A DNA stretch of 64,000 bases from Minisyncoccia bacterium (GTDB lineage Bacteria; Patescibacteriota; Minisyncoccia; Phycocordibacterales; CALRBL01): the NCBI GenBank assembly GCA_038230075.1, contig JBBRNV010000002.1:62215-126214 (forward strand), written 5' to 3'. Made by a program: the position numbers and the translations under genes. The stretch's first letter is position 1, and each line of letters opens with the position of its first letter. Positions 8,198-42,873 of this stretch are shown one piece after another. The notes beneath the pieces are model-generated. The model ran no database searches. It saw only the letters and a program-made list of their open reading frames with translations, and was not told the DNA's origin.

Positions 8198-9493
8198 TTG
8201 GTCATGTCATTTTCTATTGAAATTCTGTACGAAGATTTTAAAAACTCAGCAGGAGTTTGTATCGACAGTCGAAACATAAAAGACAATCAACTATTTTTTG
8301 CATTGAAAGGTGAACGTGTTGATGGAAATTCTTTTGTTGAAGAAGCGCTAAAAAAGAATGTGATTAAAGTAGTTATGAGTAATGAAGATGTGTATAAGAA
8401 TTTGTCACACGACGTAAAGGACAAAGTGTTCCTCGTAAAGGACACTCTTACAATACTTCAAGAACTAGCCATATTTCATCGAAAAACATTTTCAATTCCA
8501 GTTATTGCTATCGGAGGATCTAATGGAAAAACCACTACTAAAGAATTGCTTCGTGAAGTATTGTCGAAAAAATATAAAGTCTATGCGACAGAAGGGAATT
8601 TAAATAATGATGTCGGACTTCCGTTAAGTATTCTCCGAATTACAAAAGACATTGAGATTGCGGTTATTGAACTCGGCGCAAACCACATAGGAGAAATTGC
8701 AAACCTATGTCTCATTGCACAACCTACACATGGTCTCATTACGAATATCGGTAAAGCACACATTGGTGAGTTTGGATCACTCGATGGAGTTCTCAAAGGA
8801 GAGGGTGAGTTGTTCGATTATCTATCAGAACATAACGGCTCATATTTTTTAAATGAAGAAGATATTCGATTAGTTAAGAAAACTCAAAACAAGCCCCAGA
8901 TCATAAAAGCAACATATAACCGAAGTTTGGCTGATGGTATTGAAAACGAGCTTCCTGGTGAACACAACAAACAAAATATGGCTGCAGCTCTTGTTGTTGG
9001 TCGTTTTTTCGGGGTAGATGAGGTACTTATAAAAGAGGCTATTTCTGCATATAAACCAACACTCGGTCGTTCAGAATGGAAATTATGGCTCAGCAACAAG
9101 GTTTTTTACGATGCTTACAATGCCAATCCTTCAAGTATGGCTGTTGCTCTCGAAACGTTTGTTTCGCTTAAAAACCTTGAAAAATGGCCCAAAATGGCTA
9201 TTTTAGGAGATATGAAAGAGCTTGGAACGTATACTACAACTGAACATGCAACTGTTGTTGAGCAAGTAGAAGCATATATAGAACAAGGAAAGCTTCAGAA
9301 AGCTATATTTGTAGGCTTAGATTTTGAAAATGTTGCTAAAAGTATGGAAACTGATTGCGAAACAACCTTATTTTTCAGCACCCTTGAAGATCTTAAATTT
9401 TATTTTGATAAACTAGGTTATCCAAAAGGTGAGACTATTTTTATGAAAGGAAGTCGAGGAATGAAACTAGAGACTATTTTAAATTGGAACTAG
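8198..9493 (+). CDS. murF: UDP-N-acetylmuramoyl-tripeptide--D-alanyl-D-alanine ligase
   Basis: Mur ligase motifs GGSNGKTTTKE and GNLNNDVGLPLSIL, and a C-terminal domain with GSRGMKLE. Confidence 0.9.
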   Translation: MVMSFSIEILYEDFKNSAGVCIDSRNIKDNQLFFALKGERVDGNSFVEEALKKNVIKVVMSNEDVYKNLSHDVKDKVFLVKDTLTILQELAIFHRKTFSIPVIAIGGSNGKTTTKELLREVLSKKYKVYATEGNLNNDVGLPLSILRITKDIEIAVIELGANHIGEIANLCLIAQPTHGLITNIGKAHIGEFGSLDGVLKGEGELFDYLSEHNGSYFLNEEDIRLVKKTQNKPQIIKATYNRSLADGIENELPGEHNKQNMAAALVVGRFFGVDEVLIKEAISAYKPTLGRSEWKLWLSNKVFYDAYNANPSSMAVALETFVSLKNLEKWPKMAILGDMKELGTYTTTEHATVVEQVEAYIEQGKLQKAIFVGLDFENVAKSMETDCETTLFFSTLEDLKFYFDKLGYPKGETIFMKGSRGMKLETILNWN

Positions 9494-15686: not shown

Positions 15687-15696
15687 ATATACATAT

Positions 15697-15906
15697 ATGG
15701 CAAAGAATCAATACAAAGGAAAAAATGTTAAGGACCTCGCAAAAGATTTGTCTTCAAAACAAGAAGCAATGAATAAATTTCGATTTACTCTTTCATCTGG
15801 AAAAGCAAAAAACAATAAAGAAGGAAGAAATCTTCGAAAAGAAATTGCTCAGATTTTAACTGAAATGAATGCGGCTCCAAAAGTAGTTAAAGCAAGCGTA
15901 AAATAA
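15697..15906 (+). CDS. rpmC: 50S ribosomal protein L29
   Basis: Size (69 aa) and position. Confidence 0.85.
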
Positions 15907-15911
15907 TTTAT

Positions 15912-16184
15912 ATGAAAACTCCATCAGCAAAAACATCAAAAAGTTCAGAGGCAACAACAGCATTAAAGCGAGAGCTTCAAGGTGTTGTTACTTCAGATAA
16001 GATGAAAGATACTATCGTTGTAAAGGTAGATCGATTTGTTAAACACCCAAAGTATGGTAAATTCCAGAAGCTTTCAAAGAAGTTTAAAGCTCACGACGCA
16101 GGAAACACAAAGAAAATTGGAGACATTGTAACAATTGTCGAATCACGACCAATTTCTAAAGATAAGCACTTTATCGTCAAATAA
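15912..16184 (+). CDS. rpsQ: 30S ribosomal protein S17, with an N-terminal extension
   Basis: S17 OB-fold core and position. Confidence 0.9.
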
Positions 16185-16193
16185 TTAACCATC

Positions 16194-16565
16194 ATGATAC
16201 AGCCACGAAGCATCGTAAATATTGCAGATAACTCAGGAGCCAAAATTGGCCGAATTTTCAAAGTACTTGGAAGTTCAAAAAAGCGATATGCTCAGCTTGG
16301 TGACTTGGTAGTACTCTCAGTTCAAAAAGCAGAACCTCGAAAAGCAGTTAAGAAGAAAGACGTTCTTCAAGGAGTAGTAGTTCGACAGCGACAAGCTTTC
16401 CGACGAAAAGATGGTTCATACGTTCGATTCGACGAAAACGCAGTGGTTATTCTTGAAAAAGGAAAGATGGATCCACTAGCTGGACGAATCTTCGGACCAA
16501 TTCCACGAGAAATTCAGGAAAAGGGTTTTCAGAAAATTGCTTCACTAGCACCTGAAATCGTATAA
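16194..16565 (+). CDS. rplN: 50S ribosomal protein L14
   Basis: MIQ..S.L..ADNSGAK start typical of L14. Confidence 0.96.
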
Positions 16566-16579
16566 ATAAAGAAAAATAT

Positions 16580-16795
16580 ATGCATGTAAAAAAAGGAGAC
16601 AATATAACAGTAATCGCCGGAAAGGATAAAGGCAAAAAAGGAGCCATTATTCGATCTATCCCATCTAAAGATATGGTAATCGTTTCTGGTATCAACATGC
16701 GAAAGCGACATCAGAAAGCTCGAAAGCAAGGAGGAAAGGGTCAGATTCTTGAAATCGCTGCCCCACTTCATGTTTCTAACGTAAAGAAATCATAA
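16580..16795 (+). CDS. rplX: 50S ribosomal protein L24 (short form, 71 aa)
   Basis: KOW motif (VKKGD.V.VI.GKDKGK.G) and position. Confidence 0.9.
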
Positions 16796-16805
16796 CTATA
16801 CCTAT

Positions 16806-23630: not shown

Positions 23631-26498
23631 ATGGAACAAAGTTTTTCACAAAACAAAGAACTTTTCTCTTCTCCTGAAGAAGAACTTGCATATTTGCGCG
23701 AGCGAGTTCAAAAACAAGAACAAGTATTGAAACAAAAAGGTGAGAATCCTGATCGAGAAGAGTTGATCATGAAAGAGTTGAAAGAATACACACAATCAAT
23801 TCCTGAAAAAACTTTAGCTAAGGGCTTTCAAATGATAGAGCCACATCAACAAGCCATTGTTCTCGATCTTATTCCTGAAACACATGATGATAAGATGTCA
23901 GAACTTCTTGGGCTTCTTCATGATAAAGGTTTTCTCAACACATTGTCTGTTGTTGAAAAGTTGGGTAATCCTCATATTGAATCCGATTTTCATCGGTTTC
24001 TAGTTGAATATATTAAGAAAGGATTTGAAGTAAAGGGAGCAAGTGAGAAATCTCCAATCTACAAAGCACTTCGACACACTCTATATGAAGTGTCGCTTCC
24101 TCGTCCAAAAAAAGAAGAAAAAGAACGGCAGTTGAAAGAAGTTATTTCAAGTATGGAACAGTTCTACGCAGGAATGCTTTCAGTTTCAACTGAAGCAGAG
24201 AGAAACACTGAAAACTTTTTTTCAATTGAACTGGCTATTTCAAATGACAGTCAAGAATTTGTTTTCTACGCTTCAGTTCCTGATAGTAAAACTAACCTGT
24301 TTGAAAAACAGCTTCTTTCTGTTTTTGCAGGAGCAAAGATTGTTGAAAAGAAAGATGATTACAATGTGTTTAATGCAGAGGGAATTACTGTTGCATCAGT
24401 TGCCAAACAAAAGAATAAACCAATTTTTCCAATCAAAACCTATGAGCAGTTTGACTATGATCCATTAAATATTGTTTTGAACACTCTTTCAAAGATTGAT
24501 AAGTCGGGGGAAGGAGCGTCTATTCAATTGGTCATCAATCCGTCTGGCGACTACTACCTTAAACCTTTTAAAAATGCACTAGAACAGATTCATAAGGGAG
24601 TGAAAGTGAAAGACGCAATCGATACTCCGTTCACTGCTGGTCAATTAATGAAAAAAGAGTTGAAAGAAATTGGTAAAACAATGTTTGATGAAGTGTTTAA
24701 GCGAAAAGATGACAAGAAAAAAGACGAAGAAAAATTTGAGAAAAAAGGGGTAAAGCCAGAAGATCAAAAAGTACTCGAGCAAATTGAGCAGAAAATATCT
24801 TCGCCAGTTACTGCTGTTAACATTCGTATTGTTGCGTCAGCTCCAAGTAGACATCGTGCAGAAGAAATTCTTTCAGATATTGAGTCTTCATTTAATCAGT
24901 TTGAAAACACTACGGGAAATGCTTTATCTTTTGATCGAGTTTCAGAGAAAGACCTTTCAAAAACAGTTCGAAATTTCTCATTTAGAATGTTCGACGATAG
25001 CCAAGCCCTTCCTATGAATTTGCGTGAAATTAGCTCTATTCTGCACTTCCCAGGCCAGTCTATTGTTGAAGGTGGACAATTGAAGCAAAGTAAGGCGAGT
25101 ACAGCTCCAGCGCCCCTTGATGCGCCTCGAGAAGGGGTCTATTTGGGTGTTAATAAGCACCGAAATCAAGAAGTTCCTATTTATATGACTCCTGAAGATC
25201 GACTTCGACACTTCTACGTTATTGGTCAAACAGGAACTGGAAAGACTACTCTTTTGAAAGACATGATTATTCAAGATATTAAGAATGGGGAAGGTGTCTG
25301 CTTTATCGATCCACACGGATCAGACGTGCAAGATATTTTGGCCCATATTCCACCTGAACGATTCGAAGATGTTATTTATTTCGATCCAAGTTATATTCCA
25401 CGGCCGATGGGAATGAATATGCTTGAATACGATCCTGCATATCCTGAGCAAAAAACATTCGTGGTAAATGAACTCTTTTCTATTTTTGATAAGTTGTTTG
25501 ACATGAAGACGACCGGAGGCCCAATGTTTGAACAATATTTTAGAAACTCAACAATGCTCGTGCTTGAAGATCCAGAATCAGGAAACACACTTCTTGATGT
25601 ATCTCGCGTGCTTTCAAATAAAGCATATCGAGAATTAAAAATTTCACGATGTAAGAATCCTATTGTTGTGCAGTTTTGGAAAGAAGTTGCTGAGAAGGCA
25701 GGAGGGGAATCATCACTTGCAAACATTGTTCCTTACATCACAAGTAAGTTTGATGTGTTTTTGGCAAACGATATTATGCGACCGCTTATTGCTCAAGAAA
25801 AATCGTCATTTGATTTCAGAAAGATTATGGATGAAAAGAAAATCTTACTTGTTAATCTTTCAAAAGGAAGATTGGGTGACATTAACGCTAACTTAATTGG
25901 TCTTATTTTGGTTGGAAAGATTTTGATGGCAGCACTTTCACGAGTAGATTCAATGGCTAAAGGTTTTCCTCCTTTCTATTTATATATCGATGAGTTCCAA
26001 AATGTGACCACAAATTCTATTTCAGTTATTTTGTCTGAAGCTCGAAAATATAAACTCTCACTTCATATCGCTCATCAATTTATTGCACAACTTAAAGAAG
26101 ATATTCGAGATGCCGTGTTTGGAAACGTTGGATCAATTGTTTCGTATCGAGTTGGTGCAGACGACGCTGAATATTTACAGAAACAATTTGAACCAGTTTT
26201 TACTTCAAACGATATTATGAATCTCGATAACCTGAACGCCTATTCACGACTTCTTATAAATGGCCGACCTGCTCGTCCTTTCAACATTACTGTGCCATTT
26301 CCTCCTGTGGTTGATAAATCTCACGTGCAGCCGTTGAAAGAACTTTCATATTTAAAATATGGAGGAGATAGAGAAGAGATTGAAGAAATGGTCATGAAGA
26401 AATATCGAAAAGAACCACCTCCAGCTCCTGCGCCATCACCGTTTCCTGCGGCAGAATCTCAACTTAAAAAGGCACTTAATCCATTCCTTGAGGTCTAA
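23631..26498 (+). CDS. FtsK/HerA-superfamily ATPase of the VirD4/TraD/TrwB (type IV coupling protein)-like family, soluble, with a roughly 500-aa N-terminal domain of unknown function
   Basis: Walker A GQTGTGKTT is followed immediately by CFIDPHGSD (the DP.G motif seen in TrwB/TraD and HerA). Walker B is LYIDEFQN, and the arginine-finger region is SEARKYKLSLHIAHQF. No TM segments are predicted. Confidence 0.7.
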   Translation: MEQSFSQNKELFSSPEEELAYLRERVQKQEQVLKQKGENPDREELIMKELKEYTQSIPEKTLAKGFQMIEPHQQAIVLDLIPETHDDKMSELLGLLHDKGFLNTLSVVEKLGNPHIESDFHRFLVEYIKKGFEVKGASEKSPIYKALRHTLYEVSLPRPKKEEKERQLKEVISSMEQFYAGMLSVSTEAERNTENFFSIELAISNDSQEFVFYASVPDSKTNLFEKQLLSVFAGAKIVEKKDDYNVFNAEGITVASVAKQKNKPIFPIKTYEQFDYDPLNIVLNTLSKIDKSGEGASIQLVINPSGDYYLKPFKNALEQIHKGVKVKDAIDTPFTAGQLMKKELKEIGKTMFDEVFKRKDDKKKDEEKFEKKGVKPEDQKVLEQIEQKISSPVTAVNIRIVASAPSRHRAEEILSDIESSFNQFENTTGNALSFDRVSEKDLSKTVRNFSFRMFDDSQALPMNLREISSILHFPGQSIVEGGQLKQSKASTAPAPLDAPREGVYLGVNKHRNQEVPIYMTPEDRLRHFYVIGQTGTGKTTLLKDMIIQDIKNGEGVCFIDPHGSDVQDILAHIPPERFEDVIYFDPSYIPRPMGMNMLEYDPAYPEQKTFVVNELFSIFDKLFDMKTTGGPMFEQYFRNSTMLVLEDPESGNTLLDVSRVLSNKAYRELKISRCKNPIVVQFWKEVAEKAGGESSLANIVPYITSKFDVFLANDIMRPLIAQEKSSFDFRKIMDEKKILLVNLSKGRLGDINANLIGLILVGKILMAALSRVDSMAKGFPPFYLYIDEFQNVTTNSISVILSEARKYKLSLHIAHQFIAQLKEDIRDAVFGNVGSIVSYRVGADDAEYLQKQFEPVFTSNDIMNLDNLNAYSRLLINGRPARPFNITVPFPPVVDKSHVQPLKELSYLKYGGDREEIEEMVMKKYRKEPPPAPAPSPFPAAESQLKKALNPFLEV

Positions 26499-26516: not shown

Positions 26517-27137
26517 GTGTATAATGAACGTATGACTCATCACAAATACGAACAAACATTTACTCTTATAAAGCCAGATGGAATTCAGCGGTCATTAATT
26601 GGTGAAATGATTGGCAGATTTGAAAAAGTTGGCCTCAAATTGGTTGCGATGAAAATGTTTGTACCTACAAAAGATCTCATTAAAAAGCATTACACCATTG
26701 ATCCTGATTGGTTTATGATTACCGGTACTAAATCCATTAAAGGAAGAGCAGCTTCGGGGGAAGATGTAACGGGATTAGATCCAATAAAAGTATGTGAAGA
26801 GGTTCTTGAACGACTACAAACCTATTTATCTGCAGGTCCCGTAATTTCTATGGTGTGGCAAGGTGCTCATGCAGTTCGGCTCGTTCGAAAACTTGTGGGA
26901 GGAACAGAGCCACTTACTTCAGATGTGGGAACAATTCGTGGAGACTTTGTGATGGACTCTTATGAAATGACAGAAGTTGATAAACGATCGATTCGAAATT
27001 TAATTCACGCATCAGGATCAGTGAAAGAAGCGCATGATGAAATTAACTTATGGTTTAAACCTGAAGAAATTATCAAGTATCGATTGGCACAGGAAGAAAT
27101 TTTGTATGATGTCAATCTTGACGGAATTTTAGAATAA
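26517..27137 (+). CDS. ndk: Nucleoside diphosphate kinase with a roughly 45-aa insertion
   Basis: TFTLIKPDG start and catalytic-His region (NLIHASGS). At 206 aa it is longer than the canonical ~140 aa, with an insert after KHY. Confidence 0.75.
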   Translation: MYNERMTHHKYEQTFTLIKPDGIQRSLIGEMIGRFEKVGLKLVAMKMFVPTKDLIKKHYTIDPDWFMITGTKSIKGRAASGEDVTGLDPIKVCEEVLERLQTYLSAGPVISMVWQGAHAVRLVRKLVGGTEPLTSDVGTIRGDFVMDSYEMTEVDKRSIRNLIHASGSVKEAHDEINLWFKPEEIIKYRLAQEEILYDVNLDGILE

Positions 27138-27204
27138 ACTTCCTCTTTAAAAAATCCTTGCGTCTCGTGTGAGGTGAGTATAATGAACTACGGATTATCT
27201 TGTA

Positions 27205-27862
27205 TCATCGAGATTAATTTTTTCATTCGGGGTTTCGGAATCAATTTTCACTTTGGTGTTAGTTGTAGAAGTCCCACCTAGTTTAAGCTAGGATGATACC
27301 TGATAATCCATGCAAGAAACGGAAAAGTGTAGGTACGTCGAAAGATGTCCTTATAACTAGCCGTTTTTTGCTTTTTATGGTACTATGGTAAGTCGCTAGT
27401 TCACCCCATATCACCTCACCCTGCAAAGCTTGTCACCTCATGCTCTTGCGATTTATTCTCAACCCCCTCAGACTGATAGCACTATCGCTTCTTAGTTGGG
27501 TCGAAGAACACCAACCTGAAGACCCAGATCACCACGTACTCACTCTTGTTGACGCAAAGATTTCCGAAATGAGAGAGGGGATTGTCAAAAAACGTTTACA
27601 TTGCGACCCTTACTTGATTGGTTGTCGTTGTCCACTTCGAGTGGAAGAGACGGCCGATCTTCAAGGGATACGCATAACGGTGACGTTTACTCAAATGCGA
27701 TGGATTGTTTCTTTTGAGGGAGATATTGCACTCATCACCAAGGCGCAATTATTTATCCAGAGGAGATTTTTCAAAAACACCCGAGTTGTTGTACGACCGA
27801 CCGAAAATTCCACTTAAGCCCACCGCCCGCTTTGCGTTTACGCCGAGCGGGCCGTGCTTTTT
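27205..27862 (+). ncRNA. Candidate structured non-coding region or unclassified RNA, flanked by a promoter-like element and an intrinsic terminator
   Basis: A TTGCGT ... TATAAT promoter-like element lies at about 27171-27200. A long-range helix pairs GGATTATCTTGTATCATC (27212-) with GATGATACCTGATAATCC (-27312). A GC-rich hairpin plus T-tract terminator lies at about 27824-27862. The only ORF in the region (27440..27817) has atypical codon usage. I could not assign it to an RNA family. Confidence 0.25.
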
Positions 27863-27901
27863 TATAACTTCACTCTTTTCCATATTTGGTATAATAGCCA
27901 C

Positions 27902-28015
27902 ATGAGAAAACTTACCTTGATTCTGCTTATTATTATCTTGGTGGCACTAGGTATTGGGTATGCACAAAAATTGTATAGAGGATTAACAACTGAAACAGCT
28001 CCGCTTACACGATAA
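27902..28015 (+). CDS. Possible 37-aa single-TM micro-protein upstream of livH
   Basis: ATG at 27902, a hydrophobic core (LTLILLIIILVALGIGY), and a stop 20 nt before livH. Confidence 0.25.
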   Translation: MRKLTLILLIIILVALGIGYAQKLYRGLTTETAPLTR

Positions 28016-28035
28016 GTTCGTGTTACCATAATCAC

Positions 28036-28917
28036 ATGTTCTCAGCTGCAGACATCTCTATCATTCCACAACTTATTGCAAATAGCCTTATTGCAGCGGC
28101 ACTTTATGCACTCATTGCGCTTGGTTTTAACTTAATATATGGAGCAACAAAGTTTTTCAACTTAGCTCATGGTGCGGTGGTTGTTGTTGGTGGGTATCTT
28201 GTTTTTGCTCTCACTCGATTTGCAGGAATTAATGTCTACATTGCAGTACTTATTGGTGTTCTCGGTTCGGGTGTTCTCGGACTACTTCTTGATCGTTTTA
28301 TTTTTCTTCCTCTTCGAGTTCGAAAAGCGTCGAGTATGGTGACCTTGGTAGCATCACTTGGAATCTCAACGGTGCTTCAGGCAATTATCGCCATGATTTT
28401 CACTAGTCAGTTTCAAACACTTTCACTCAGCTTCAATACAAAAACATTTAATCTTTTTGGAGGAATCATCACTGATGTACAGTTGGTGATGATGCTCTCA
28501 GCTCTTGTCATAATGATTGTACTCGGCATTATTTTACGAAAAACATTATTTGGAAAAACAGTTGAAGCTATTAGTGATAACGAAGAAGTAGCACGAGTGG
28601 TTGGTATTGATACAAATAAAGTAATTGCTCAAGTATTTTTTATAGGTTCAATGATTGCCGGGCTTGCTGGTATTCTTGTTGGATTCGATACGGGGATTGA
28701 ACCTACTATGGGTATGTCTTTGCTGCTTAAAGGCGTCATTGCTTCAATTATTGGAGGGGTGGGGAGTGTATACGGAGCTGTTATTGGTGCGGTAGTGCTT
28801 GGCTTCGTTGAAAACTTTGGTATCTGGAAAATCTCAGGGGAGTGGAAAGACGCTATTGCGTTTGGAGTGTTAATTCTCTTTTTATTATTCAGGTCTCAAG
28901 GTATTCTAAAACGATAA
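28036..28917 (+). CDS. livH: Branched-chain amino acid ABC transporter permease (LivH family)
   Basis: Multi-TM permease whose LivH-like assignment rests on its position as the first of two permeases directly upstream of the two ATPase genes. Confidence 0.85.
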   Translation: MFSAADISIIPQLIANSLIAAALYALIALGFNLIYGATKFFNLAHGAVVVVGGYLVFALTRFAGINVYIAVLIGVLGSGVLGLLLDRFIFLPLRVRKASSMVTLVASLGISTVLQAIIAMIFTSQFQTLSLSFNTKTFNLFGGIITDVQLVMMLSALVIMIVLGIILRKTLFGKTVEAISDNEEVARVVGIDTNKVIAQVFFIGSMIAGLAGILVGFDTGIEPTMGMSLLLKGVIASIIGGVGSVYGAVIGAVVLGFVENFGIWKISGEWKDAIAFGVLILFLLFRSQGILKR

Positions 28918-39018: not shown

Positions 39019-39023
39019 TATTT

Positions 39024-39332
39024 ATGACTATGAAAAAGATTGGTTTATTTTTCGTTTCTTTCATTATTATCTTCGCATTTTCTTCTGTTAATCAGAATGT
39101 GGTATATGCAGCAACAAAAGCTCATGTACTTAGTGTAAAGACTGTTACATCTTCAACGCCAACCACTCTTACAAAACCAAAGACTATAGTTCAAAAAAAG
39201 GCTAACACAAAAAGCAAAATAGTCGTCAAGCAAAAATCTAAGGTGGTAAAGAAGAAGATGGTCAAGCCAAAACACTCGAGTAAGTTACTCACTGCTCCAC
39301 TTTTAACTCCTGAAACGGCACCTCATAATTAA
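39024..39332 (+). CDS. Small secreted Lys-rich protein
   Basis: A signal-peptide-like N-terminus and a KKKMVKPKHSSK region. Confidence 0.45.
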   Translation: MTMKKIGLFFVSFIIIFAFSSVNQNVVYAATKAHVLSVKTVTSSTPTTLTKPKTIVQKKANTKSKIVVKQKSKVVKKKMVKPKHSSKLLTAPLLTPETAPHN

Positions 39333-39338
39333 TACCAC

Positions 39339-39698
39339 ATGAACAAATATTTTCTTTTCGCAATTATTGTTTTGAGCTTAATCTTTGTTGGTAAAACATT
39401 TGCTCAAAATACTCGACCTGCCACCTGTAGAAAAGAAGCTCAGGTTAATTATGAGCATAGTCGTACAGAAGCTATAAAAATAAGAGATGAGGCTTTTAAA
39501 AATGCGAAAGGTGCGCGAAACGATGGAATTGAGTCGGCAAAGAAAGTACACAACCGCTCTCAAACTCTAGGAGCGCTTGAAGATGTAAGAAAAGTTTTTC
39601 GAAACGCTGAAAGCCAAGCTTTTGTGAACTATAAAAATACACTAAAAGATATAAAAACAAAATATGCTGATGCACGAAAAGATTGCATCAACAAATAG
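39339..39698 (+). CDS. Small secreted protein
   Basis: Signal-peptide-like N-terminus. Confidence 0.45.
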   Translation: MNKYFLFAIIVLSLIFVGKTFAQNTRPATCRKEAQVNYEHSRTEAIKIRDEAFKNAKGARNDGIESAKKVHNRSQTLGALEDVRKVFRNAESQAFVNYKNTLKDIKTKYADARKDCINK

Positions 39699-39750
39699 TA
39701 AGGTTTAGGTCTTATTTGTCGAGTTCATCATTTCGATTATACTTAATTAT

Positions 39751-39936
39751 ATGACAAAGAATTTTATTGGTGTTTTGTTCTCACTTCTCATTCTATTCGT
39801 TATTTACGCTGGATTTCCAGATTCAATACGATCTATTCTTTTAATTATTGTAGCCGTTGTACAAATGTTCATTTTCGCACTTTTTGAGACAATCAGAGTT
39901 AAACAAGAAAGAGAGAGAGAGAAAGAATTAGATTAA
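39751..39936 (+). CDS. 61-aa two-TM micro-protein
   Basis: Hydrophobic profile only. Confidence 0.3.
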   Translation: MTKNFIGVLFSLLILFVIYAGFPDSIRSILLIIVAVVQMFIFALFETIRVKQEREREKELD

Positions 39937-40076
39937 AAATAGAGGTTGATAGTACTTCCTTAACACCCTCGTCGCTCCGCTCATGTGAATACTTCGTTAC
40001 ACTATTAACCTCTGTTTCTTTTTTTATTCTTATATTTATAACTGAACGAAAAAGATATTATTCCTTTTTCGCTTTG

Positions 40077-40085
40077 TGATATAAT
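40077..40085 (+). promoter_or_regulatory. Extended -10 element (TGaTATAAT) 7 nt upstream of the ATG, consistent with a leaderless transcript
   Basis: TG at 40077-78 and TATAAT at 40080-85. The ATG is at 40093. Confidence 0.4.
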
Positions 40086-40092
40086 TAACGAA

Positions 40093-42102: not shown

Positions 42103-42873
42103 TTTGAGATATCCGATATAAAAGTTTGGATAATCATTTCGGTATCGCTGTATGATTTGCCACGAAGCTTGAAGCCCTTTCGTTCTGTTTTCTGAAGAAG
42201 CACTTTTTTTATGAAATCTGAATGTTACTGAGTAGTCGGGAATATTTGCAAACTTGTATGTTTTCCCAATTCGAAACCAAAGATCGTAATCTTCCCAGAT
42301 AATAATAGTTGGATCATAGATATCACCTTCGCTATTGCATGGAGTGAGAGCAGACTTTCTAATCATAACTGTTGAGTGGGCAAATTGATTGCGAAACATC
42401 ATGTTTCTTCGTATCGATTTATCGCTGGTGGCATAAGTGATAGGAGAGACAAAGACCCCTTTGTCATTAATTGAATTACCAAATGTTCCTACCAATGCAT
42501 ATTCTGCATGTTCCTTTTTCAAAAAGAATGCAACTTGTTTAGTAATTTTTTCTTCATCATTCCAAAAGTCATCACTGTCAACTACGGCTATATATTCACC
42601 TTTCGTGAATGTGTGGGCTTTGTTTCGTGCCGCTGTAATTCCTATATTTTTTTCTCCTTTAATATATCTGATTCTTTTATCTATATAGGTGGCGATTAAT
42701 TGTTCAGTATCATCAGTTGAGGCATCATCGTAAATAATAAATTCAAAATTTGTGTATGTCTGGGAAAGCACTCCTTCAATTGCATCTTTCAAATAGTGAG
42801 CTCGATTGTATGTGCAAAGAATAACAGAAACGAGTGGTGATTGAGCTTGTGTTGTACTTACGTCGGGATTCAT
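42067..42873 (-). CDS. Glycosyltransferase family 2
   Basis: VSVILCTYNRA ... YDDASTDDT (DxD) motifs. Confidence 0.85.
   Translation of the reverse strand: MNPDVSTTQAQSPLVSVILCTYNRAHYLKDAIEGVLSQTYTNFEFIIYDDASTDDTEQLIATYIDKRIRYIKGEKNIGITAARNKAHTFTKGEYIAVVDSDDFWNDEEKITKQVAFFLKKEHAEYALVGTFGNSINDKGVFVSPITYATSDKSIRRNMMFRNQFAHSTVMIRKSALTPCNSEGDIYDPTIIIWEDYDLWFRIGKTYKFANIPDYSVTFRFHKKSASSENRTKGLQASWQIIQRYRNDYPNFYIGYLKLCIKRVLLFIS

Follow-up and report, generated by a model that had tools for sequence, protein, structure and literature searches.

A conserved small RNA gene downstream of ndk in a Paceibacteria-type genome, very probably encoding a short and divergent 6S RNA (ssrS), and the orphan open reading frame that follows it

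Between ndk and the genes of a liv permease in the genome of a Minisyncoccia bacterium (assembly GCA_038230075.1, contig JBBRNV010000002.1) lies an interval that an earlier note had described as a single noncoding element of about 0.75 kb. We analyzed this interval within a stretch of 64,000 nucleotides, referred to here as the window; positions are those of the window, and features lie on the plus strand unless stated otherwise. The interval begins after the ndk stop codon at 27137 and is limited on the right by GGTATAAT (27888-27895), the -10 box of the next unit, which consists of a leaderless open reading frame (ORF) for a 37-amino-acid (aa) transmembrane (TM) peptide (27902-28015) followed by livH and other liv permease genes. 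It is not one element but two ordinary transcription units, each with its own terminator. Unit 1 (27158-27377) is a small RNA gene composed of a -10 TATAAT box, a 118-nt RNA, and an intrinsic terminator, and it very probably encodes a divergent 6S RNA. Unit 2 (27378-27865) comprises a promoter-like site, a small orphan ORF of 125 aa, and a second terminator. The host genome is low in G+C (~38%), its contig is likewise present in SRR19962015, and the Ndk protein of the window is at most 68% identical to Ndk of metagenome-assembled genomes of the Paceibacteria/Parcubacteria type. These genomes belong to the candidate phyla radiation (CPR).

Several features listed in the earlier note exist but are now divided between the two units. 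The terminator at 27312-27377 had been overlooked, and the interval, said to be the longest gene-free stretch, is the third longest among stretches without an ORF of at least 130 aa (the two longer ones lie at 15687-16805 and 39019-40092). A higher G+C content is indeed seen over 27300-27800 (0.44 to 0.47, against ~0.35 to 0.40 in the flanks), but the richer part is the ORF (0.45), and the RNA core has a G+C content of 0.36. The three interpretations offered in that note fare accordingly: a divergent housekeeping RNA is right for the first 220 nt, a structured RNA over all 760 nt is unsupported, and a small foreign insert is possible for the ORF only, which is an orphan of atypical G+C content at third codon positions (GC3).

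The promoter of unit 1 combines a -35-like TTGCGT (27158-27163) with a -10 TATAAT (27179-27184), both present as had been noted. The pair is not listed by a consensus scan because its spacer is 15 nt and the scan demands 16 to 18 nt. The 5' end of the RNA core (27192-27309) lies 7 nt past the end of the -10 box, and the first base of the closing stem seems to be the transcription start. This stem is formed by an 18-nt inverted repeat, GGATTATCTTGTATCATC (27192-27209) and GATGATACCTGATAATCC (27292-27309), whose arms are 89% complementary and pair as 8 bp, a 2x2 internal loop, and another 8 bp, as indicated by the minimum free energy (MFE) fold, the inverted repeat itself, and the covariance model (CM) alignment. 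It is the long-range helix of the earlier note, displaced there by about 20 nt; it encloses 82 nt and not the ~100 nt (27212-27312) that had been claimed. Inside it, the 5' strand of the central bubble, GAGAUUAAUUUUUUCAUUCG (27210-27229), is A/U rich and unpaired in the CM alignment. Both MFE and CM then place an internal (apical) stem at 27230-27275, in which GGG (27230-27232) pairs with CCC (27273-27275), an apical hairpin with a UUUG loop at 27242-27265, and a 3'-bubble hairpin, CCUAGU-UUAA-GCUAGG, at 27277-27292, which is preceded by the conserved CCCA of the 6S signature CCCACCU. In the MFE fold the gene ends in an intrinsic terminator (27312-27377), a GCAAGAAACGG...CCGUUUUUUGC hairpin (27312-27371) followed by UUUUUAU. 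Over 27185-27385 the plus strand has a folding energy of -69.2 kcal/mol (z = -6.7; none of 200 shuffles as good) and forms the helix-enclosed junction plus the terminator, whereas the minus strand folds less well (z = -4.3). With the terminator hairpin included, the predicted primary transcript measures ~186 nt.

No match in Rfam 15 explains the stretch: the whole window has none at gathering score, and a search of 27000-28100 at E ≤ 10 returned chance-level matches only. ARAGORN finds no tRNA or transfer-messenger RNA (tmRNA) gene in the window, and 17 related loci searched against Rfam at gathering score yielded a single tRNA. Signal recognition particle RNA, RNase P RNA, 5S rRNA, Y RNA, retron msr/msd, and the known riboswitch classes were dropped as candidates on the basis of the architecture, since their signature motifs are absent and Rfam gives no match; RNase P RNAs of CPR bacteria are divergent yet full-size (PMC8172020).

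We therefore turned to relatives, using 80 loci that encode relatives of the window Ndk, one genome per species. With the RNA region as query, nhmmer gave weak matches, all on the ndk strand and just 3' of ndk, that share by eye a promoter, a closing helix of covarying sequence, cAGGGA, a CUUGG-loop hairpin, CCCACCUAG...CUAGG, and a terminator. A first covariance model, R1, rested on 8 copies in which annotation was limited to the central helices; at E ≤ 0.015 it identified 43 copies, and it scored the window copy at 85 bits. The second, R2, was built from those 43 copies with the closing helix included, and it finds one full-length plus-strand copy in 66 of the 80 ndk-selected loci (E 8e-25 to 1e-4). 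In the 64 kb of the window it has exactly one match, at 27192-27309 (71.6 bits, E = 7.7e-15). Core length in the family ranges from 110 to 194 nt (median, ~126), and the RNA lies at a median distance of ~100 nt from the ndk stop codon. Inspection by eye of the 67 copies (66 loci plus the window) showed that in most of them a -10 box (TATAAT, TAAAAT, or TACAAT) ends 6 to 8 nt 5' of the first paired base, often accompanied by a TTGC-type -35 element, and that a G+C-rich hairpin with a U-run follows within ~5 to 10 nt of the RNA 3' end. The end of ndk and the -10 box of the RNA overlap in about 15 species.

Covariation, which the earlier note had proposed to examine, is strong in the helices of unit 1. 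The first set was the 43-copy alignment from the model lacking the closing stem; because the helix had been left out of that model, the alignment could not lean toward it. Changes on both sides are nevertheless seen in 15 of the 17 closing-stem pairs, 80% of cells are paired compared to 64% in shuffles, and double-change cells number 287 compared to 109; in slid controls, pairing falls to 38 to 48%. The second set, a 67-sequence alignment fitted to the structure, gives 88% paired cells (63% in shuffles), 647 double changes (214 in shuffles), and compensatory changes in 34 of 38 pairs. Here the apical stem has compensatory changes in all 10 pairs, the 3'-bubble hairpin has changes on both sides in 4 of 6 pairs with 95% of cells paired, and the GGG/CCC pairs of the internal stem are invariant in 65 to 67 of the 67 copies. 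The RNA is thus a conserved, covarying family present as one copy per locus. Some members carry an insertion in the apical stem, (U)GAUGAG...UUC(U/A)GA, that resembles a box C/D or K-turn-like motif (L059 5050-5188, L065 4648-4781, L075 4901-5048, and L030 4773-4945).

As its own -10 box and terminator flank most copies, we consider the RNA an independent small-RNA gene and not the leader of the next gene, which in relatives usually has its own -10 box ~6 nt before the ATG. In 38 of the 66 loci the gene directly 3' of the RNA (for example, L047 4836-5237, L003 1021-1434, and L053 7096-7488) encodes an uncharacterized protein of ~135 aa, probably with four TM segments and with the motifs H..GG, WE..E, and D..D..GG. 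This protein family has no Pfam or NCBIfam match and is absent from the window. Its gene adjoins the RNA even where the RNA lies kilobases from ndk (L037, L043, and L053), and likewise in metagenome loci that were found through the RNA.

What kind of RNA this is follows from the comparison of the family with known RNAs. From 5' to 3', its members consist of a closing-stem strand (~17 to 19 bp), an A/U-rich single strand of ~20 nt, a GGG/CCC internal stem of variable length, a short hairpin, and the second closing-stem strand. This is the rod-like layout of 6S RNA, with a closing stem, a central bubble whose 5' strand is unpaired over ~20 nt, an internal stem, and an apical loop, as obtained from both MFE and CM; covariation backs its closing, internal, and apical stems. 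The positions conserved in at least 90% of copies form an invariant core, GGGA...ACCCACCU...AGG, which can also be written GGGA ... A-CCCACCU ... AGG. The Rfam consensus of 6S RNA (RF00013), as displayed by cmscan, reads ...auaGGGagccc... (CuGAgCCgAaaauuuuuauaauaGGGagccc) ... gggcaCCCACCUggaAcagCaGGuUCaAg..., or, for the nucleotides flanking the bubble, GGGagccc...gggcaCCCACCUgg...caGG; it is the same core in the same order, and that order relative to the closing stem, the A/U-rich bubble strand, and the internal stem is also the same. The Rfam segment corresponding to the 5' bubble strand of the window reads 'gAaaauuuuuauaaua', and at the 3'-bubble hairpin the Rfam consensus reads CCCACCUggaAcagCaGG; Rfam draws the GG of this hairpin paired with the 5' strand instead.

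A pattern derived from the Paceibacteria family alone, GGGAN{34,64}GRNNACCCACCTRGN{4,12}CYAGG, was scanned on public metagenomes and matched more than 120 stretches. Among 80 of these, R2 aligned full-length on 58, including human-gut and high-GC soil contigs without ndk nearby. When 20 pattern loci were searched with Rfam, 12 were called RF00013 at or above gathering score (46.9 to 86 bits), with coordinates and strand in agreement, and most of the others were CPR-type copies with ndk and/or the membrane-protein gene adjacent. The alignment of R2 to canonical 6S RNAs is full-length and colinear, with closing stem on closing stem, GGG/CCC on GGG/CCC, and the hairpin on CCUGG...CCAGG. Two loci bridge the two forms, with R2 scores of 53 and 43 bits and RF00013 scores of 46.9 and 51.8 bits (L153 and L155, respectively). 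In relatives that had not been selected by the pattern, RF00013 gives three matches below threshold (19.8 to 21.5 bits), in L006, L037, and L074, which coincide exactly with the RNA, strand included; these were the only RF00013 matches in that 45-kb search. Based on the family-wide comparison, the agreement of the invariant core with the RF00013 consensus, the retrieval of canonical 6S RNAs, and the sub-threshold matches on relatives, we consider it very probable that 27192-27309 is ssrS in a divergent form whose closing stem is short. The earlier note had not matched 6S by eye and the direct Rfam search fails likewise, yet the comparative evidence points to this family.

Several observations weigh against this assignment. 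RF00013 has no match on the window RNA even at E ≤ 10 in the 1.1-kb search (27000-28100), and at its gathering score (46.4 bits) it matches none of the 17 Paceibacteria loci. Sub-threshold 6S matches were absent from a further 10 relatives, which leaves the total at 3 of 20. The E-values of R2 on metagenome loci are inflated because those loci were preselected by a pattern belonging to the model; for the same reason, only the independent Rfam calls on them count as evidence. The core, at 118 nt, is short compared to the ~160 to 200 nt of known 6S RNAs. The score of the window copy is lower than the family median, and the copy deviates at two near-invariant positions, having GGGG/U in place of GGGA and U in place of A before CCC (UCCCACCU). 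There may also be a second, canonical 6S RNA elsewhere in the genome, as the scans covered the 64-kb window and the loci. Finally, R2 run with filters off does not match the E. coli ssrS locus; because E. coli 6S lacks the CCCACC signature, however, this miss has no bearing on membership.

Among the other explanations, the one that survives best, though we consider it quite improbable, is a lineage-specific small RNA that merely resembles 6S, for example, a partner of the downstream ~135-aa membrane protein or a binder of another form of RNA polymerase. OLE RNA, which partners with OapA, is a model for such a pairing of an RNA with a membrane protein, and Ms1 of actinobacteria is one for a 6S-like RNA that binds a different form of the polymerase. 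The failure of RF00013 to reach gathering score on every Paceibacteria copy tested, the unusually short core, and the membrane-protein gene that directly follows the RNA in 38 of 66 loci, even far from ndk, would all fit this explanation. However, the 6S consensus has the same invariant nucleotides in the same order, a pattern derived from the family retrieves bona fide 6S RNAs, and the membrane-protein gene is not nearby in 28 of the 66 loci or in the window. In addition, a -10 box of its own ~6 nt ahead of the ATG makes that gene a transcription unit separate from the RNA.

It is far less probable that the RNA is a cis-regulatory leader or riboswitch, with a helix-closed aptamer and the terminator as expression platform for the downstream gene. 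The order of promoter, P1-closed junction fold, terminator, and gene is that of a riboswitch, and the neighboring gene is conserved in many relatives. In the copies inspected, however, the terminator is self-contained (A-tract, stem, and U-tract) and begins a few nucleotides past the helix without overlapping it, so that no antiterminator is evident. The next gene has its own promoter, the downstream genes vary (the membrane protein, proteins of ~455 aa, and the orphan ORF in the window), and the RNA is homologous to a trans-acting RNA. We reject this possibility given that the terminator is separate from the helix and that the downstream genes differ and have their own -10 boxes. Practically negligible is a miniature transposable element or other small foreign insert, which the 18-nt terminal inverted repeats enclosing 82 nt and the adjoining ORF of atypical composition might suggest, but which we reject given that the window holds a single copy in 64 kb, that its position relative to ndk is fixed across dozens of species, that the arms covary so that pairing is kept rather than sequence, and that the stronger fold is found on the plus strand only.

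If the window RNA is a 6S RNA, its function can be inferred from its better-known relatives. 6S RNAs imitate an open promoter and sit in the active site of the RNA polymerase (RNAP) holoenzyme containing the housekeeping sigma factor; they are released when nucleoside triphosphates (NTPs) become plentiful and the enzyme transcribes the 5' bubble strand, with the stem next to it, into a short product RNA (pRNA) (PMC8876501). Transferred to the window, the closing stem (27192-27209/27292-27309) would stand for the downstream duplex, the 5' bubble strand (27210-27229) for the template strand of the pRNA (PMC8876501), the internal stem (27230-27275) for the upstream duplex, and CCCACCU with the hairpin (27273-27292) for the 3' side of the bubble. 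The RNA, whose gene has a promoter (-10 box, 27179-27184) and a terminator (27312-27377) of its own, would bind the housekeeping holoenzyme and damp transcription under nutrient scarcity. As NTPs return, the polymerase would copy the 5' bubble and the closing-stem strand into pRNA, and the RNA would be released. A form as short as this is plausible because truncated B. subtilis 6S-1 RNA, reduced to the central bubble and two short arms, binds sigmaA-RNAP, templates pRNA, and is released in vitro (PMC8876501).

The conserved neighborhood invites a further step. Paceibacteria-type CPR bacteria might possess a naturally minimal 6S RNA of ~120 nt with a ground-state 3'-bubble hairpin, locked into an ndk-ssrS-membrane-protein arrangement that either couples NTP supply (through Ndk) to the pRNA-driven release of polymerase or ties 6S to a membrane protein. 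The promoter of the RNA reaches over the stop codon of ndk in several species. We regard this scheme as rather doubtful; if true, the Ndk coupling or the membrane-protein tie would mean that the 6S cycle is wired in a way that model bacteria do not show.

Unit 2 is less readily explained. Its putative promoter is an extended -10-like TGGTACTAT (27378-27386), which may drive the ORF unit and which lies where relatives have the promoter of the next gene, the leaderless membrane-protein gene. The single ORF, at 27440-27817 as reported earlier, predicts a 125-aa protein with an N-terminal hydrophobic helix followed by a small alpha/beta domain. The strong intrinsic terminator that had been noted is also there (27821-27865), with arms at 27821-27837 and 27840-27856 followed by a T-run, CUUUUUUAU. 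The G+C-rich hairpins of the earlier note, including the UUCG-loop hairpin CCACTTCGAGTGG (27632-27644), are present but belong to the ORF of this separate, terminator-bounded unit and not to the RNA. Its claim of rare codons stands insofar as codon usage is atypical overall; AGA, AGG, CTG, and CCC each occur only one to three times. GC3 is 0.42, compared to a reference value of 0.28 ± 0.06.

We lean toward the view that this ORF is a real gene, either lineage specific or acquired. It is the only ORF to span the unit, reaching from the promoter-like site to within 3 nt of the strong terminator; by our estimate, 470 nt of this G+C content would contain a 125-codon ORF with a probability of roughly 0.04. 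The codon log-likelihood ratio is 0.01 per codon in frame, well above the other two frames (-0.63 and -0.43); relative to off-frame chunks (-0.60 ± 0.17) this is ~3.6 standard deviations higher, yet it is lower than 99% of chunks from real genes (0.38 ± 0.13). A single-sequence AlphaFold2 model has an N-terminal helix and a coherent alpha/beta topology (predicted local distance difference test [pLDDT] score of 70; predicted template modeling [pTM] score of 0.56). The alternative, to which we give appreciable but lesser weight, is that 27390-27865 is a decayed remnant or a noncoding transcript and the open frame fortuitous. In its favor, besides the low codon score, the ORF matches only itself in a word-indexed search of 5.8 billion clustered proteins, and an exhaustive HMMER search of 1.84 billion representative proteins found no homologue beyond itself. 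The sole other HMMER match, a 27-residue stretch (E = 6e-5) in a protein matched in 8 stretches, is read as spurious. There is no Pfam or NCBIfam family, no phage match, and no PDB fold similar to the model (template modeling score below 0.35). The start codon has neither a Shine-Dalgarno sequence nor a leaderless -10 box of the kind found before 13 other window genes, and the plus strand of the unit is moderately structured (z = -3.4).

With the whole interval as query, nhmmer found nothing homologous to 27390-27900 in related loci, and the one other contig bearing the ORF is identical over 6.4 kb. The ORF sits where 38 of 66 relatives carry the ~135-aa membrane-protein gene, but it is not a decayed copy of that gene, as the hidden Markov model of the protein family finds nothing in the window.

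The genes around the interval add some context. A TA[ATC]AAT box lies 5 to 8 nt before the ATG of 13 ORFs of at least 60 aa in the window, compared to 0.4 expected from shuffles, which suggests that leaderless mRNAs are common in this genome. The arrangement is seen at 26520-26534 and 27890-27904, as well as at 8204, 23631, 29805, 30603, 32301, 33689, and 40093 on the plus strand and at 42873, 45535, and 55874 on the minus strand; by eye, the 37-aa TM ORF (27902-28015) has the same arrangement of box and ATG. By this logic, ndk starts at the ATG at 26532 and not at the GTG at 26517. The 955-aa protein encoded upstream of ndk (23631-26498) has signatures of DUF87/HerA-like and TraG/VirD4-type coupling ATPases, is labeled DUF8128 in the precomputed annotation, and may belong to an apparatus for secretion or DNA transfer.

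In bacteria, 6S RNA regulates transcription globally. Because the curated Rfam model misses the divergent form, genomes of the Paceibacteria type, a large clade of ultra-small, uncultured bacteria, would seem to lack it. In the literature that we searched, we found no work joining 6S RNA with the CPR, only a passing mention together with Patescibacteria, and no described CPR RNA of this kind. A covariance model that finds the gene in 66 of 80 species-level loci should be useful for annotating CPR genomes. A 6S RNA of this form would offer one regulatory mechanism for organisms with very few recognizable regulators. As a natural short form that parallels the engineered minimal 6S RNA, it also helps in asking what minimum of RNA suffices for open-promoter mimicry.

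We conclude that the RNA is an extension of the known 6S family and not a new type of element. With 6S/SsrS (RF00013) it shares the rod layout, in which the two ends of the RNA pair as a closing stem, the 5' strand of the bubble is rich in A and U, and the internal stem is capped by a loop. It also shares the bubble-flanking nucleotides GGGA ... CCCACCU ... GG and, as it appears, a single-copy gene with its own strong promoter. It differs in that the CPR form lacks ~20 bp of the distal closing stem (~20 positions at each end of the Rfam model), has a core of 110 to 194 nt (median, ~126) compared to ~160 to 200 nt, carries an intrinsic terminator hairpin within a few nucleotides of the stem, has a 3'-bubble hairpin that covariation backs as a ground-state element, and scores far below the gathering threshold. 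The synteny also differs from that of E. coli, being ndk, ssrS, and a small membrane protein in place of zapA-ssrS-fau. A parallel in structure comes from B. subtilis, where free 6S-1 RNA already has a small 3'-bubble hairpin (PMC8876501). The truncated 6S-1 RNAs, in contrast, are laboratory-made and have ~10-fold lower affinity, whereas the CPR short form is natural and clade-wide. Ms1 of actinobacteria is likewise a 6S-like, rod-shaped RNA from a lineage in which standard 6S searches come up empty, and it was recognized by synteny and structure, not by sequence (PMC9130861). Ms1 is reported to bind core RNA polymerase and not the holoenzyme, whereas the CPR RNA keeps the 6S signature.

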